Positions 4,907 to 63,477 of a DNA stretch of 64,000 bases are shown here, one piece after another. The first letter of the stretch is position 1. Every line of letters begins with the position of its first letter. A program made the translations under genes and the position numbers. Source of the DNA: Candidatus Cloacimonadota bacterium (GTDB lineage: Bacteria; Cloacimonadota; Cloacimonadia; Cloacimonadales; WRIO01); NCBI GenBank assembly GCA_029553545.1, contig JAKPKU010000001.1, positions 5,639 through 69,638 of the forward strand. Direction: 5' to 3'. The notes beneath the pieces were generated by a model. That model was not told where the DNA came from. It saw only the letters and a program-made list of their open reading frames with translations, and did not search any database.

Positions 4907-6046
4907 CTATTTTACGCTCTCCTTTACTTGTGGGATTTGTTCTTCAATTACAAATGAATCGATATCGTGCCAAAATAGATAAACTTCTTCTTCCCAGTCT
5001 AATGCTACATCATCAAAATATACACGTTTATGTTGATTAAACACACGGAACTTGTGTTTACCAACTCTTACAATATATTGCGTATGAGTGCCTAAATATA
5101 GTATATCTTCGACTATTCCTTTTATGATGTTAAAATCACTCTTTATGTTTGGTTGTTTTCTTGAGATTGCGATTTTCTCAGGGCGTAGAGAGAGCGTGAC
5201 TTTTTCGCCTACTTCAACTTTTAAGTGGCAAGAGCTATCTAATACTATTTTTTGACCATCCTGTTCAAGCTCAGTTTCTATTTCTATAAATTCATCTTCA
5301 ATACCAACTACCTCACCAGAAATAAGATTGGTATCACCTATAAAATATGCAGAGAATATGGAATTAGGTCTTTCATAAATATCACCAGGTTGCCCTGTTT
5401 GAACAATTTGCCCCTTATTCATAATTGTCATGCGATCAGAAACACTCATTGCCTCGCCTTGATCATGGGTAACATAAATAAAAGTAATTCCGACTAAATC
5501 GTGAATGTTCATTAACTCGATTATCATTCTTTGTCTTAATTTTAAGTCAAGCGCAGCTACTGGTTCATCGAGCAATAATACTTTTGGTTTATTTATGAGT
5601 GCTCTACCAATGGCAATCCTTTGTTTTTGCCCGCCGCTTATTTCATTTGGATATTTATCTTTATGTTCAAACATTTGTACAATATTTAGCATTTCATGTA
5701 CTTGTTTTTTTATTTCATTTTCAGGTACTTTTTTTATTCTTAAACCAAAAGCTACGTTTTCGAAGATACTCATATGTGGAAATAAAGAGTAGTTTTGAAA
5801 AATCGTATTGACTTGCCTTTTATAAGGAGGTAATTCAGTAATATCTTGATTTTCAATAAATATTCGACCTTCTGTAGGCATCTCAAAGCCAGCTATCATC
5901 CTTAATATCGTAGTTTTTCCACATCCGCTTGGTCCAAGAAAGGAAAAAAGTTCACCATTATTTATTGTTAGTGAAACATTGTCTACAGCTTTAAAATTGC
6001 CAAAATTCTTTGTAACATTTTCAATTCTTATTTCTCCCAATATCAA
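4907..6046 (-). CDS. potA: spermidine/putrescine ABC transporter ATP-binding protein
   Basis: Walker A GPSGCGKTT, signature ISGGQKQR and Walker B LLLDEP are present, plus a C-terminal TOBE-like regulatory domain. The start is TTG at 6046; a second TTG at 6040 has better spacing to the AAAGG. Confidence 0.9.
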   Translation of the reverse strand: MILGEIRIENVTKNFGNFKAVDNVSLTINNGELFSFLGPSGCGKTTILRMIAGFEMPTEGRIFIENQDITELPPYKRQVNTIFQNYSLFPHMSIFENVAFGLRIKKVPENEIKKQVHEMLNIVQMFEHKDKYPNEISGGQKQRIAIGRALINKPKVLLLDEPVAALDLKLRQRMIIELMNIHDLVGITFIYVTHDQGEAMSVSDRMTIMNKGQIVQTGQPGDIYERPNSIFSAYFIGDTNLISGEVVGIEDEFIEIETELEQDGQKIVLDSSCHLKVEVGEKVTLSLRPEKIAISRKQPNIKSDFNIIKGIVEDILYLGTHTQYIVRVGKHKFRVFNQHKRVYFDDVALDWEEEVYLFWHDIDSFVIEEQIPQVKESVK

Positions 6047-6087
6047 ACCTTTCTATAGATAATCTATATATATTGTATTTCTGTTAC

Positions 6088-6115
6088 AATATAATTAATG
6101 CCATCCATTTGTCAA
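6088..6115 (-). promoter_or_regulatory. putative sigma70-type promoter of the potABC operon
   Basis: On the minus strand, TTGACA (6115-6110) is followed by a 16-nt spacer and TATATT (6093-6088). It lies about 70 nt upstream of the potA start. Confidence 0.4.
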
Positions 6116-6300
6116 AGACTTTTTTATTTATTATTACTATACTCAAAAAGTAGACGTAGAATGTTGGTCTGATGTAGTGATTAATAGCAATAGCTCAAAG
6201 TATCTGTCATTAAAGATGCCATGCAAAATGCCCATTTTAAAAGCATTTTGATCTTAAAAAATTGCTGGCTATAAACTCTTTAATTAGTGATTGTTCTTTT

Positions 6301-6658
6301 TATATCGAGAGGATCGAAAAGCGATCTCAAATCACATCTTTTTCTATCTTTCAAAAGTTCGTAATAAATCTCCTTTTTATTCCCTTTTGATTCCTATAGA
6401 AATACCTTTCATTCTCCAAGATAGCAAAGGGAATGTAAGAGGAGTCGTGTAGGTATATTATAGATAAATAGCCTTATACATTAATAAATGAAAAATGAGC
6501 AAAAAGCTGGAAAATCAGGACCAGATTACAGAGATATTTGTTCTTTTATGACACTGTTTTCTTTTCAATAAGATCATTTTTAAACAGAGATTTTTAGTAG
6601 ATTATTTTTATTTATCGTGCAATAACTTCATACAGTAAAAAAACAGCTAAAATAGCAT
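6301..6658 (-). repeat. conserved intergenic element, copy 1 (minus orientation, co-oriented with potABC)
   Basis: The 30-nt core CATTCCCTTTGCTATCTTGGAGAATGAAAG lies at 6435-6406 on the minus strand. Flanks align by eye to the copies at about 21900, 32625 and 46783. No reading frame is conserved across copies. Outer boundaries are approximate. Confidence 0.8.
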
Positions 6659-7117: not shown

Positions 7118-8029
7118 ATGAAAAAGATAATTTTAATTAGTTTAATACTTGTAGTATTGTTCCCTGTTACTCTTCGTGCTACTTTTACCTATCTAAATGA
7201 TGATGAGTATAAGAAATTAAGTAAAGCTGAAAGAGAACAGTATATCATCGAATTAGAAGGAAGATATGAATCACTAGGACAAAGAAGAGAGAGTGCTGAA
7301 GCAAATATCGAACGTGATATAGCAGCTATCGAAGAATTAAATAAGGAACTTGAAGATATAAACAAAGAGATTCAAAGACTATATGACACTTTAGGCATAA
7401 CAGAAGAAAATCTTAATGCATATCGTTCAACAATTAATTACTACAAAGATCAAGCTACAAATTGGGAGAGCATGAGCGATTCTCAGCTATGGGATAACGC
7501 AAAGGCTTTTAAAGAGTTGAATGTAGCATATGATAAAACAAAAGAAGAGCGTCTTGCAAAACTACCAGAATTCAAGAGAGAATTTAATGATTTAGACAGA
7601 AGATTTGTTGCAATTGATAATTCAATGAAGGCGTTTGCAAAAGCACAAAATGAGGCTAAACAAGCACAATCTCAAGATGGTTACAGTGAAGATAATTACA
7701 CAACCGTCAGAGGAGATTACTTATCCAAGATAGCAGCATATGACCACATATACGGTGATTCTAAAAAATGGGGAATTATTTATCGCGCGAATCGCGATCA
7801 GATCAAAGACCCCAATATCCTTAAAGAAGGAATGGAAATAAAGATTCCACGCGGATTACCTACTAGTTGGAAGGTTTATCGAGGCGAATCATTGTGGAAA
7901 ATCGCTGCATACCCAGAAGTATACGGAAAAGGAAGCAAATGGACGCTAATTTACCGGGCAAACAAAGATCAAATTAAGGATCCAAATATAATTTATCCAA
8001 ATCAAACATTCTCTATACCAAGAGATTAA
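7118..8029 (+). CDS. secreted coiled-coil protein with two C-terminal LysM domains
   Basis: N-terminal signal peptide and a long charged coiled-coil region. There are two LysM-like repeats (YTTVRGDYLSKIA...IKIP and YRGESLWKIA...FSIP). Confidence 0.7.
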   Translation: MKKIILISLILVVLFPVTLRATFTYLNDDEYKKLSKAEREQYIIELEGRYESLGQRRESAEANIERDIAAIEELNKELEDINKEIQRLYDTLGITEENLNAYRSTINYYKDQATNWESMSDSQLWDNAKAFKELNVAYDKTKEERLAKLPEFKREFNDLDRRFVAIDNSMKAFAKAQNEAKQAQSQDGYSEDNYTTVRGDYLSKIAAYDHIYGDSKKWGIIYRANRDQIKDPNILKEGMEIKIPRGLPTSWKVYRGESLWKIAAYPEVYGKGSKWTLIYRANKDQIKDPNIIYPNQTFSIPRD

Positions 8030-21810: not shown

Positions 21811-21899
21811 ACTTATAATTTTAGTACTATTATAAGCTTTCACTAACAAAGCAATCATCTATCTCTTCAATAATCACATTAAAAGCTCTCTATATTGAG

Positions 21900-22235
21900 A
21901 TGCTATTTTACAAAATATCATTATACCTTTTTTAAAAAATTAGCCTGAAAATTGCTATATTTATTTACTAAAATAGACACGAAAATAAATCAAATAATCC
22001 CATTATCAGGTCAATTTTTCTCCATTTACATCTTTTATTTAATCATTGTTGTATATGACTATTTTTCAATTATATGTCTATATGATACCTCTTGCATTCC
22101 CCTTGCTATCTTGGAGAATGAAAGAGATTCTTATAGGAATTAAAAGGGAAGGGAAAGGAGATTTATTAATCATTTTTATGAGATAAATAGAAGGTGTTTT
22201 ATTGTCCATATTTTTAAGTAATGGTGATCGCTTAA
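21900..22235 (+). repeat. conserved intergenic element, copy 2 (upstream of the radical-SAM/SPASM-lon unit)
   Basis: Core at 22095-22124. Direct repeats TATATGACTAT (22052-22062) and TATATGTCTAT (22071-22081). The ORF-track ORF 21952..22143 runs through it, but its frame is not conserved in the other copies. Confidence 0.8.
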
Positions 22236-22405
22236 TTTGTTATTTGGAGATTATGGATCAGCTTCATAAAAAAATACAGTTACAAGATATCAAATAGTTA
22301 CTTTGTCTGAGAAGAAGAGTTTTTTCTGGCAATAGAAACAGGTTACTATTAACTAAAAACTTGACATAAATTCTTATCTCAAAAATGTAGTAATTAGGAG
22401 AAAGA

Positions 22406-31534: not shown

Positions 31535-32572
31535 TTAGTAGGGCTTAATTCTGGTCATTTGTTTTATGGTATCCAGATCAAGATATTTCCAAATTGAGGC
31601 GCCTGGTGTGTAACAAGTGTTCCAGCAACCCCTACATTCTTTTATCTCTTGTTTTCTCTCTTTCCATGCCTGGCTGCTGAATATCTCTTTGGCTGTCTGC
31701 TTTGCTAAGTTGCCAATGGGGTCACCGATGCATACTTTCACATCGCCATTGGGTTGGATAAAGAACTTGCTCCCTAAAACAGGGGAGTTGATGTAAGGGC
31801 AGATCTTTTTATAATTATTATTAAGATAGTCTTCATATCCTTTGTACAGCCAGATTGGCGTTTTCAGATAGGGTGACTTGATGATTCTTTTGATGATTTT
31901 ACTCAGCATCTCATTCTCAGTAACTTTCATGTCATCATTTTCACGGTGTGCCTTTGAAGTAAAGCGATAGATATCGATATTGAAGTTCCAACCGATAGAT
32001 TCAATATAGTCAAGAATATCAGGTATTTGTGCAAGATTCTTTTGAGAAATAACGATGTTTACTGATGTTTTAATAGGATTAGAGATCCTTTTGTTTTCAT
32101 CAATTATTTTTTGCATATTCTTCTGAACAGTATCCGAGACATTTTCTGCTTGCCTGATTTCATCAACAGTGCTGCCAAAGCCATCGAACGAACATGAAAT
32201 GGAGAGCTTGTGTCTAAACACAGTTTCGATAGTTTTATCGACTAATTCTTCTGGTCCATATAGAGTTGATAGCAAATGTACCCTTTTAAATTGTTTACTC
32301 TTGGCGTACTTAGCAAAGTCGTCAAGTTGTGGATGAAGCATTGGCTCCCCACCAGATAGAGTAATTCCTTGCGCTCCAGAGTTATCCAAACGATCAATCA
32401 CAGTATTAAAAACATCTTCGGTCATAAATGGTATCTCAGACTTCATAAAAGGAATATTACACTGCAAGCATCTTTGTGTACAGTGATAAGTAAGTAGTAT
32501 ATTATTCATGGTAAAGCTGGGGGTCCGTGTTGCAATGTTTTTAAGAATCTGTATATTTCTTTTTTTTATCAT
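31535..32572 (-). CDS. radical SAM protein with C-terminal SPASM/twitch-like Cys motif
   Basis: CTQRCLQC (CxxxCxxC), the GGEP motif (LSGGEPMLHP) and C-terminal cysteines CPYIN...VKVCIGD...CRGCWNTC. Confidence 0.75.
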   Translation of the reverse strand: MIKKRNIQILKNIATRTPSFTMNNILLTYHCTQRCLQCNIPFMKSEIPFMTEDVFNTVIDRLDNSGAQGITLSGGEPMLHPQLDDFAKYAKSKQFKRVHLLSTLYGPEELVDKTIETVFRHKLSISCSFDGFGSTVDEIRQAENVSDTVQKNMQKIIDENKRISNPIKTSVNIVISQKNLAQIPDILDYIESIGWNFNIDIYRFTSKAHRENDDMKVTENEMLSKIIKRIIKSPYLKTPIWLYKGYEDYLNNNYKKICPYINSPVLGSKFFIQPNGDVKVCIGDPIGNLAKQTAKEIFSSQAWKERKQEIKECRGCWNTCYTPGASIWKYLDLDTIKQMTRIKPY

Positions 32573-32624
32573 AGCATATCCTAATAGTTTTTTACTAAGC
32601 TTATACGAACCACTTTTAAGTCAA

Positions 32625-32866
32625 GAAAAAATTGCAGTATTCAAATAATACTTAACTAAAATAAAGTTGATTCCTGTTTTTTCTTTCTTTTTACTAATTT
32701 TTTAGATGAATATTGTATATGATTATTTAACAATAATATGTCTATGACATTCCCTTTACATTCCCCTTGCTATCTTGGAGAATGAAAGGTAGTTTTATAG
32801 GAATCTAAAGGGAATATAAAGAAGATCAATTGCTGATTTTTAAGAGTTGGGAAAGATCAGTCTTGT
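32625..32866 (+). repeat. conserved intergenic element, copy 3 (between the divergent radical SAM gene and trmB; co-oriented with trmB)
   Basis: Core at 32759-32788. Direct repeats TATATGATTAT (32716-32726) and AATATGTCTAT (32735-32745). The 5' arm is shorter than in the other copies. Confidence 0.8.
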
Positions 32867-33046
32867 AACCTATAGTTTTTTATTAATAATGATAGTTTAA
32901 TTAATCGTATGGAGATAATGCTACAGCCTTTTCTAATAAGTTTGTTATCATTCTTTAGACTAATATTCAAAAAAAAGATCGTTCTTTTTACTTTTTGTTT
33001 GACATATTTTGATTAATACAAGAAATGGGTTATAAAAGGAATTATT

Positions 33047-46782: not shown

Positions 46783-47145
46783 GTGATATTTTACGATCAA
46801 TGAATGGAAAATTGAACCGTACACAAAACAATTTATAAAAAAGAGAGCTTGAAAATTACTTTTTTTCTACTTTTATATCATCTCAAAAACTTACAAAATT
46901 CCCTTTAATTAACCCAGATTTTCTCTCATTTCACTAATTTTCTATTAATAAGTGTATATGTCTATTTTTCAAATATATGTCTATATGAATCCCCTTACAT
47001 TCCCCTTGCTATCTTGGAGAATGAAAGGTAATTTAAAAGGAATCTAAAGGGAATGCAAAGGAGGTTTATTATGAATTTTATGAGAGAGAAAAACAATGTG
47101 TCTTATTATTGTTTTTTTAAGTCATAAAGATAAGTCGCAGGTGAG
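46783..47145 (+). repeat. conserved intergenic element, copy 4 (upstream of the isoprenoid ether-lipid operon)
   Basis: Core at 46998-47027. Perfect 11-bp direct repeat TATATGTCTAT at 46955-46965 and 46974-46984. GGGAATG (47049-47055) is perfectly complementary to CATTCCC. AAAGGAGG (47057-47064) is followed by an ATG at 47071 that only this copy has. Confidence 0.8.
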
Positions 47146-47342
47146 GTATTTGAAGTTTTTTGAACAAAGATAGACTGCCATCATTATTAATAGATATATT
47201 CGATTTGTTACTAATTATTAGTCTTTTATTTTTGATTTATCAAACTATTTTTGATAAGATACAGTTTTTTATTGACAATATAATCATATTTATTATTCTT
47301 AGATTTATAAAAGAATATTTAAACTATAGAATAGGAGTCAAC

Positions 47343-48233
47343 ATGATACTACCAAAATACTTTGATGATCGAGCTAAGATGCTGGATAGAGTGCTTGATC
47401 AGTATTTAACCCCAGAAACAGAAGAGCCCAAGGATTTGTATGCAGCCATGAGATACTCTGTATTTAGTGGAGGCAAGAGATTAAGACCTATTCTATTTTA
47501 TGCAACTTATGAGATGCTGGTAAAAAAAGCAACTGAACATCAAATGGAACAAGCATCATTAATCGCAGCAGCTCTTGAAATGGTGCATACAGCGTCTTTG
47601 ATTCATGATGATTTGCCTTCAGTTGATAATTCTGATGAGCGAAGAGGTAAGGAGTCATGTCATGTCAAGTTTGGTTCTGCGACTGCTATCTTGGCTGGTG
47701 ATGCTCTATTGACAAAAGCTTTTGAAATGATTACCAAACTGGAAGATCCACGAAAAGCTGTACACTGTATTAGAGTCTTGTGCAATTTAGTGTCTACTCA
47801 AGGGATGATAGGCGGGCAAACAGTAGATATTATCTCATCATCCAAACAAAATATCCCTATTACTGTTATCAAATATGTACACTTAAAAAAGACAGGAGCA
47901 TTACTTGAAGCGGCTTCTCATCTTGCTTGCGTTATGGCAGATGCAGATGAGAATACCACAAATAATATGGTGAATTATGCACAGAATTTAGGTCTTGCAT
48001 ATCAGATAATTGACGACATTTTGGATGATATTGGTGACTTTGAAATGCTTGGTAAAGAGCCTTATGAAGATGCTCGTAATTTCAAATCTACATACCCTTC
48101 TATATTAGGGCTTGATAAAGCAAGACAAACCGCTGAGAAACTCATAAGTGATTCAAGCAAATTGATTAAAAACTTGCCTAATAATCATATATTAATAGAA
48201 TTCGTAAAAATGATAAAGGATAGACTGCCATAA
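47343..48233 (+). CDS. trans-polyprenyl diphosphate synthase, predicted geranylgeranyl diphosphate synthase
   Basis: FARM DDLPSVDNSDERRG and SARM DDILDD. A small residue (Ala) sits 5 positions before the FARM (HTASLIHDD). The ATG at 47343 is preceded by AGGAG. The track extension back to 47160 translates AT-rich intergenic sequence. Confidence 0.8.
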   Translation: MILPKYFDDRAKMLDRVLDQYLTPETEEPKDLYAAMRYSVFSGGKRLRPILFYATYEMLVKKATEHQMEQASLIAAALEMVHTASLIHDDLPSVDNSDERRGKESCHVKFGSATAILAGDALLTKAFEMITKLEDPRKAVHCIRVLCNLVSTQGMIGGQTVDIISSSKQNIPITVIKYVHLKKTGALLEAASHLACVMADADENTTNNMVNYAQNLGLAYQIIDDILDDIGDFEMLGKEPYEDARNFKSTYPSILGLDKARQTAEKLISDSSKLIKNLPNNHILIEFVKMIKDRLP

Positions 48234-63450: not shown

Positions 63451-63477
63451 AAAGGGTGTTGTATAACACCCTTTTTC
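63451..63477 (+). terminator. rho-independent terminator downstream of buk
   Basis: AAGGGTGTT - GTAT - AACACCCTT followed by TTTT. Confidence 0.8.

Follow-up and report, generated by a model that had tools for sequence, protein, structure and literature searches.

We analysed a 64,000-nt stretch of DNA from a Candidatus Cloacimonadota bacterium (contig JAKPKU010000001.1, positions 5,639 to 69,638; hereafter the window), focusing on a 73-nt segment at 46998-47070 that a first-pass annotation had read as a plus-strand RNA switch or attenuator, or as a sponge for a CsrA-like protein or the ribosome. The segment is shown here to be the interior of a non-autonomous miniature inverted-repeat transposable element (MITE) that is mobilised in trans by a Cloacimonadota IS5-family transposase. 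Homology shows the cargo of this MITE to be a copy of the putative promoter and leader of a family of ~190-amino-acid (aa) proteins, and not to be derived from an insertion sequence (IS). Taken as a whole, an IS5-mobilised MITE with a borrowed promoter-leader cargo, in which the repeat module serves as a phased platform for a protein, is the explanation that we consider probable.

The flagged segment lies inside a MITE

The 26-nt core of the segment occurs four times in the window, at 6410-6435 on the minus strand and from 22095, 32759 and 46998 on the plus strand, against a chance expectation of 0; copy 1 carries the single C>T core change that had been reported for it. In alignments, the likeness among the four copies spans ~360 bp, well past the flagged 73 nt. 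These four copies per 64 kb (about 1 per 16 kb) are located as follows; TIRs are terminal inverted repeats.

6261..6629, minus strand: MITE copy 1, core at 6410-6435
21897..22265, plus strand: MITE copy 2, core at 22095-22120; an identical copy is present at metagenome locus L048
32573..32930, plus strand: MITE copy 3, core at 32759-32784
46806..47173, plus strand, ends approximate, TIRs decayed: MITE copy 4, aligned with the full-length copies in L010 and L004; encloses the flagged segment

The full-length element measures ~355 bp and is bounded by the 14-bp TIRs GAGGGTGTTGCATA/TATGCAACACCCTC, which are found ~355 bp apart in at least 10 loci; in the main family, the far-upstream block GAGGGTGTTGCATA is the reverse complement of the far-downstream block. 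Exact 5-bp direct duplications flank six independent main-family insertions (L004, L010, L042, L054, L059, L065), the duplicated targets being AGGTA, ATTAA, CGTTA, ATATA, ATAAT and TCTAT. The element is small, non-coding and multi-copy, with no conserved open reading frame (ORF) in its ~355 bp. Overall, all MITE-defining features that are open to testing were found.

The parent element that encodes the transposase was identified in the collected sequence. Locus L235 carries an identical end (GAGGGTGTTGCATAG) ahead of DUF772 and DDE_Tnp_1 ORFs, and its transposase is named 'IS5 family transposase' by the Joint Genome Institute (JGI); this match to the parent IS covers one IS end, the right end not being captured in L235. 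A Tn3-family origin, hinted at by the 5-bp target-site duplication (TSD) together with long TIRs, was dropped once this IS5-family parent had been found. The same TIRs also enclose a second MITE family of 277-315 bp, whose interior is unrelated (…AAACCCGCTGGTAGTAGGCATCTGCTGATTTAGGTGAAAAT…TATATATAGAGGG…) and which shows a TTAGA duplication in L057. Its members are:

L045:8094-8371, second-family MITE
L057:4910-5195, second-family MITE
L105:11269-11556, second-family MITE
L055:2280-2595 (= L107:3012-3327), second-family MITE

Sequence resembling this second family was also found upstream of paralogues of the 190-aa family that have no module (L109-L111). In addition, an IS5-family element with the same end as the parent (L087:4974-6082; DUF772 plus DDE_Tnp_1, apparently frameshifted) is inserted in the purine units of an A-type MITE, and L040:2726-2830 is the same locus without the IS, giving an occupied/empty pair. 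For the MITE itself no clean empty site was found among the collected loci, where cross-hits came from other flank repeats.

Among 185,579 species-representative genomes the core was found once, in a Cloacimonadales metagenome-assembled genome (MAG), where 31 nt (TTACATTCCCCTTGCTATCTTGGAGAATGAA) are identical and both flanks are unrelated. Searching with a 19-nt version gave more than 107 metagenome stretches (digesters and sludge), of which about six are chance matches in GC-rich coding DNA; the contexts of the element copies are all Cloacimonadota. Viral contigs lack the 19-nt pattern, and a phage origin was rejected on that count, the 14-mer matches having been due to chance.

The cargo is homologous to the putative promoter-leader of an orphan gene family

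The module made up of the core and its flanking units occurs in three contexts: within the MITE, among tandem CCATCCCGTTA units, and upstream of genes for the ~190-aa protein family. In the last of these it lies 37-185 nt upstream of the gene in one fixed divergent geometry (~20 loci, at least 12 of them distinct), and every family member in the metagenome loci searched by the module pattern has the module upstream. A paralogue in L112, found independently of the DNA pattern, has a variant module in which TTCTCCAAGATAGCA is kept and the units are of the CCTACTACTCT type. When 11 paralogues are aligned in gene orientation (alignment A4), they share a conserved order of A-tract, TTGnCA-N16-TATATT, ~60 nt, units, centre, more units, GGAGG and start codon, within which TTGnCA-N16-TATATT is nearly invariant. 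On the transcript strand the leader thus reads as 4-5 pyrimidine-rich 11-mers, the centre AAGATAGCAA, 2-3 purine-rich 11-mers, GGAGG and the start codon.

When the MITE interior is read on the other strand than in the first-pass annotation, it aligns with this gene-family leader (alignment A5). A -10-like box (TAAAAT, TATAAT or AATATT) stands 59 nt from the centre in the MITE, compared with 60 nt in the gene family, and MITE copies have nnnACA-N17/18 before it, at the same distance to the centre as in the gene family. In copy 4 the relevant features are:

47104-47075, minus strand: promoter-like AAGACA-N18-TAAAAT from a promoter scan, reading leftwards through the module
47057..47073, plus strand: Shine-Dalgarno (SD)-like AAAGGAGG with the ATT/ATG start of a mini-ORF; on the minus strand, this lies just downstream of the -10-like box

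What had been taken for an SD sequence followed by ATT-NNN-NNN-TTT is, on the sequence, the reverse complement of the predicted -10 box and the start of the leader. The idea of a cis-regulatory leader was therefore right in general; the strand is the opposite one, the gene family is a different one, and a mobile element carries it. In a set of 58 MITE copies freed of redundancy, 33/48 genes on the minus-strand side point away from the element (p=0.013), and the gene on the side favoured by the first-pass annotation is co-oriented in 24/42, which is not significant.

Two kinds of repeat were seen near these genes. Immediately downstream of the 190-aa gene, L045:2904-3064 (like L002, L052 and L057) holds a tandem array of about four ~37-bp repeats; the repeat is common to these loci, is sometimes inverted, and gives rise to spurious ORFs that translate as …FGTTKIDCTY…. 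Beyond the gene-family promoter, L002:8700-9300 (also L066 and L063) holds arrays rich in AACACACTAT/CAACACAC with recurring units of ~50 nt (TTTTTAAACAACACACTACAACTCACTGAAACACACTATTCCGAACA).

The ~190-aa family is confined to Cloacimonadota, with several paralogues per MAG that are always annotated as hypothetical, and comprises only 33 clusters among 1.8 billion representatives. The AlphaFold model has a pLDDT of 67.7 and contains a confident helical domain. Foldseek searches of PDB and BFVD gave no match with E below 0.4, a PDB profile search, PADLOC and PHROGs returned nothing, and distant family members yielded only sub-threshold Spo0A_C and HMG-box hints. No resolvase, integrase or Y1/HUH transposase signature was found in the protein, and candidate assignments to a defence-system or phage family were discarded since none matched. 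A link to CsrA was likewise rejected: the NCBIfam match (E=0.053) is sub-threshold and is without support from AlphaFold plus Foldseek or from the PDB profile search.

An invariant centre is flanked by helically phased units

The module is a quasi-palindrome in which pyrimidine-rich 11-mers lead into an invariant centre that is followed by purine-rich 11-mers, and its profile matches its own reverse complement. In copy 4 its parts are:

46952..46986, plus strand: conserved upstream block GTGTATATGTCTATTTTTCAAATATATGTCTATAT, specific to the MITE family and absent from the gene-linked and CCATCCCGTTA contexts
46987..47008, plus strand: two 11-nt units rich in pyrimidines (GAATCCCCTTA, CATTCCCCTTG) that run into the centre (alignments A1/A3)
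46995..47025, no strand: invariant centre TTACATTCCCCTTGCTATCTTGGAGAATGAA, containing the quasi-palindrome CATTCCCC-N10-GGAGAATG
47019..47061, plus strand: four 11-nt units rich in purines, approximately reverse-complementary to the units upstream

A profile search of 0.92 Mb of collected sequence recovered the exact 19-nt centre in 112/112 copies, with flanking positions 50-90% conserved; the loop described in the first-pass annotation belongs to this larger variant-free block of 19-31 nt. In nine orthologous pairs the 31-nt centre diverges by 0.7% and the units, the rest of the MITE and the flanks by 5-6%, a comparison that is partly an ascertainment effect, whereas the 112-copy search is not subject to this bias. 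Over about 2000 sites the centre has 0 changes, and the flanking units differ by ~20%. Given that the centre persists where TIRs have decayed, the constraint on it acts in situ. It is also kept outside MITEs and across lineages with different units. A coding explanation (PFILQDSKGNVKGI in the P0012 gene call) was rejected, as all codon positions are invariant. Overall, the invariance of the centre is striking.

Gene callers do run through the module, either extending an ORF, as in the N-terminal extension of P0012, or calling an upstream ORF, as in L002:9298-9477 (…PFILQDSKGNVKGI…). Such calls are probably an artefact, since the codon positions of the centre are all invariant. One-mismatch matches to the 12-mer of the centre (CTGCTATCTTGG) also occur inside coding regions of the window, at 7725-7736 and 47683-47694; these are probably due to chance, with 0.47 expected across the whole window.

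The four tandem units reported downstream of the core were recovered by Tandem Repeats Finder (47019-47061, period 11, 4.0 copies, 72% matches). Over 132 nt, G+C, WW and AT content vary with a period of 11-11.5 nt, at a power 4-5x the shuffle mean, and the phasing extends over ~12 helical turns on both sides of the centre. The option of bent DNA with phased tracts, which had been offered as an alternative, fits this strong periodicity. Depending on the lineage, CCATCCCGTTA or CCTACTACTCT takes the place of the upstream units; three lineages place different units, always of 11 nt, at the same positions. In the CCATCCCGTTA context the unit is repeated in tandem up to 5-6 times (5.4 near-perfect copies in L012); in L092 its reverse complement stands on the other side of the centre. 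In both L012 and L092 the expansion is confined to one arm, which argues against arm-to-arm pairing as the functional form.

A third type of 11-nt unit (CTCCTACTACA / GTAGTAGGAGT, 2-3 tandem copies) was noted at L011:7945-7985, L028:9127-9226 and L112:1400-1450. It flanks the variant centre in L112; in L011 and L028 it forms a separate module-like site ~300 bp from the standard module.

Pairing and SD-like motifs as RNA elements

The complementarities behind the proposed RNA switch are present at the positions reported. CATTCCCC (46998-47005) can pair with GGAGAATG (47016-47023) across TTGCTATCTT, forming 7 of 8 pairs with one C.A; the distal partner GGGAATG lies at 47049-47055, and a second, partial partner, AGGAAT, at 47038-47043. 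Alternative helices of this kind are a consequence of how the module is built, as an imperfect palindrome made up of inverted 11-nt units. Covariation was assessed in 85 unique copies (alignment A3). For the proximal hairpin, 82.8% of cells are paired compared with 82.3% in shuffles, indicating no covariation, and its only unconstrained pair is broken in 18/85 copies. The distal pairing, in contrast, shows 19 double-change cells against 5.7±2.1 in shuffles and beats all of them (for example CCATCCC/GGGGTGG in L026). Such covariation between sub-families would be equally expected from inverted copies of one repeat unit.

Of the two proposed helices, then, the distal complementarity co-varies, but the proximal one does not, and RNAalifold finds next to nothing: its consensus has 4 pairs at -0.99 kcal/mol with no compensatory change. 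Minimum free energy (MFE) z-scores are modest and differ little between the strands, at -1.6, -3.3, -2.8 and 0.0 on the strand first proposed and -1.6, -3.6, -2.4 and -2.7 on the other, and single transitions produce G.U 19 times and A.C 14 times, giving no strand bias.

The translation-like signals fared no better. The fourth unit does resemble an SD sequence in the window, but GGAG is found in only about half of all copies; likewise, the ATT..TTT mini-ORF and the tiny peptides described after it can be read in the sequence, but neither the position of the start codon nor the peptide is conserved. Next to the gene family the fourth unit is GTGGACAT, ATAGACAT or ACAGATAT, which is neither SD nor GGA, and GGA gives way to GAC, GAT or GGT. 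Local hairpins presenting GGA motifs were not found, nor was a plus-strand terminator or a dedicated promoter for a switch. Rfam gave no gathering-score match in the window, only noise at E up to 10, and a literature search turned up no description of a Cloacimonas repeat or non-coding RNA. A switch or attenuator is thus not supported, given the lack of proximal covariation, of a G.U bias, of a terminator and of a conserved SD-like unit, and neither is a CsrA or ribosome sponge, given GGA/SD motifs that are not kept in other contexts and are without hairpin loops or an Rfam match.

A proposed mechanism and its alternatives

We propose that in the native setting the predicted TTGnCA-N16-TATATT promoter fires on the strand opposite to the one first considered, so that the transcript would run through the module. 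The module itself would be a phased assembly platform for a protein, with iteron-like units placed once per helical turn on both sides of the centre and lying on one helical face; the protein bound there may be the product of the adjacent gene. By transposition, the MITE would have scattered this regulated promoter/operator through intergenic regions, and the centre would stay under selection at the dispersed sites after the TIRs have decayed. More tentatively, and in our judgement with a rather small chance of being correct in this specific form, the site could be an undescribed nucleoprotein assembly site with a ~30-bp centre and inverted, lineage-specific 11-bp iterons, bound by the adjacent ~190-aa family and spread by the MITE to ~100 intergenic regions. 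If true, such a site would join many unrelated operons in a single regulon, or a single chromosome-organising system, specific to Cloacimonadota.

Several observations weigh against a mobile promoter cassette with a protein platform. The TIRs of the window copies have at least 5 mismatches in 14 positions and no duplications are recognisable there, so the MITE status of these copies rests on homology to intact ones; the four window copies are older than the intact copies. The alignment between MITE and gene promoter is weak upstream of the -10 box (alignment A5), and both putative promoter assignments are based on consensus and conservation only. Three paralogues are without a module, and neither a DNA-binding domain nor a structural relative was detected for the ~190-aa protein in the searches described above. 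No ordinary promoter or operator explains the invariant 17-nt 'spacer'. Finally, the co-varying distal complementarity means that the module may have a role at the RNA level.

This last point bears on the idea that control is exerted by the minus-strand RNA, whose C-rich, G-poor leader 11-mers (CCUUU, UCUCC) could act as an anti-SD or Rho-loading (rut-like) tract, with the purine units and the real SD as alternative pairing partners. This idea agrees with the location of the module, which in the gene family separates a conserved promoter from the SD, with a core hairpin of a full 8 bp with one G.U on this strand, with z-scores of -1.6 to -3.6 and with the distal covariation. We nevertheless regard it as unlikely: RNAalifold found no consensus structure, G.U is not favoured over A.C, the C>T change at the eighth position of the core would make an A.C on the minus strand, one-sided array expansions break the pairing, and pairing needs no invariant loop in addition to arms. 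An outward-facing mobile promoter on the plus strand, with CTTACA/TTGACA-N17-GAGAAT in the centre driving rightward transcription, seems to us to have a similarly low chance. It would render the helices irrelevant, because their 5' arm would lie upstream of the start. The feature in question is:

46994..47022, plus strand: predicted promoter-like CTTACA-N17-GAGAAT, coinciding with the invariant centre

The 31-nt invariant block runs exactly from the -35-like hexamer to the -10-like one, the upstream hexamer is TTTACA, CTTACA or TTGACA in 52/84 copies (a perfect TTGACA in 13) with a spacer that is always 17 nt, and all four window copies (4/4) point at a downstream operon. Against this, the rightward orientation bias given above is not significant, and a separate TTGACA box stands 40-70 nt ahead of the start codon of every window operon (6030-6120, 22360-22400, 32990-33040 and 47270-47300), so that the downstream genes need no promoter from the element. 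Moreover, GAGAAT is a weak -10, promoter-like matches are no commoner than in shuffles, and the invariant spacer is left unexplained. Readings of the centre as a sigma-54, Bacteroidetes-type (-33/-7) or extended -10 promoter were rejected on inspection, as spacing or key bases do not fit.

A purely selfish repeat with no host function, its centre kept uniform by recent spread or gene conversion, would agree with the element being a MITE with many closely similar copies; we think this improbable, given units that are ~20% different and TIRs that are decaying around a centre without changes, and given that this centre is kept in non-MITE contexts and across lineages with different units. Still less probable is a site-specific recombination site (res/IRS/attP-like), with inverted arms of 8-9 bp around an asymmetric overlap of 8-10 bp and accessory repeats. 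The need for overlap identity in strand exchange would suit the strictly invariant centre, phased accessory repeats do stand on both sides of the core, and the module, like res sites, is found upstream of a small gene; but there is no recombinase gene nearby, the 190-aa protein has no resolvase or integrase signature, no flipped or deleted (inverton-like) configurations were found among the collected loci, and ~100 dispersed sites in both orientations would scramble the chromosome. Least probable of all, and largely refuted, is the initial model of a plus-strand switch or attenuator with two exclusive helices, or of a CsrA/ribosome sponge. Its complementarities and GGA/SD-like units do exist in the main family and its distal pairing co-varies, yet the proximal covariation, RNAalifold, MFE and G.U tests are all unsupportive, the SD/GGA units are not conserved elsewhere, neither a terminator, a dedicated promoter nor an Rfam match was found, the orientation of downstream genes is not significant, and the CsrA-like match is unsupported.

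Relation to known systems

In being short, TIR-bounded, TSD-flanked, non-coding, intergenic and present in many copies per genome, the element resembles the Correia elements of Neisseria (CREE/NEMIS), ERIC, RUP and Nezha, and Correia-type MITEs can also carry promoter-like sequences and protein-binding sites that affect neighbouring genes. Unlike the Correia type, it has a 5-bp TSD, IS5-family TIRs, an interior captured from a gene leader, and a hyper-invariant centre flanked by 11-nt phased units. Transposon ends around a passenger unrelated to the transposase gene are known from Tn3-derived TIMEs/MICs and from plant Pack-MULEs; the present element shares this arrangement, but its passenger is a non-coding promoter-leader module and its family is IS5. 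Set against the known systems compared in this section, it departs in three respects: the passenger, which is captured and not IS-derived, the hyper-invariant centre and the orphan linked protein.

Like REP/REPIN sequences and their RAYT genes, a dispersed intergenic palindromic repeat here also flanks a small lineage-specific gene; unlike in REP-RAYT systems, the linked 190-aa protein is multi-copy and lacks a Y1/HUH domain, and the dispersed copies have TIRs and TSDs and ride on an IS5 transposase. In its architecture, the module itself resembles parC of plasmid R1. In parC, two arrays of 11-bp iterons bound by ParR lie on either side of a ~39-bp core containing the promoter of the adjacent operon, and the ParR filament assembles on one face of the DNA and autoregulates. 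The present module similarly has repeats spaced by a helical turn (11-11.5 nt, over 132 nt) flanking a promoter-like core. In R1, however, the repeats are direct and each plasmid has one site, whereas here the arms are inverted and there are ~100 chromosomal sites; no ParR or ribbon-helix-helix (RHH) homology was detected in the linked ~190-aa protein. As in the sponge RNAs CsrB and RsmZ, the main family has several A(N)GGA-like motifs in a purine-rich stretch; unlike in those RNAs, the motifs lie outside hairpin loops, are not conserved elsewhere, and come with no dedicated promoter or terminator and no Rfam match.

Cloacimonadota are abundant, uncultured syntrophs of anaerobic digesters whose gene regulation is almost unstudied. 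For these bacteria the element offers a concrete example, open to testing, of how a ready-made promoter/operator cassette is spread through a genome by a transposon. That the centre remains invariant past the decay of the TIRs suggests use of these sites by the host or by a dedicated factor, and the link between a phylum-specific family of orphan proteins and a defined target in DNA or RNA opens a route to the function of that family. For annotation, the element accounts for a recurrent, conserved intergenic block of ~360 bp that could otherwise be mistaken for a riboswitch or a small RNA gene.

Other features of the window

The window consists of ordinary chromosomal DNA from a Candidatus Cloacimonadota/Cloacimonadales bacterium. 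No transposase or recombinase genes lie beside the window copies, whose neighbours are ordinary housekeeping genes, and the window contains no tRNA or tmRNA. A TIR-like match at 63451 was rejected as a terminator hairpin. The left end of copy 3 directly adjoins the start codon (32572) of a minus-strand radical-SAM gene (31535..32572), and at 32570-32600 this decayed end is itself the sequence just upstream of the radical-SAM start, with AGGA ~8 nt before the ATG.

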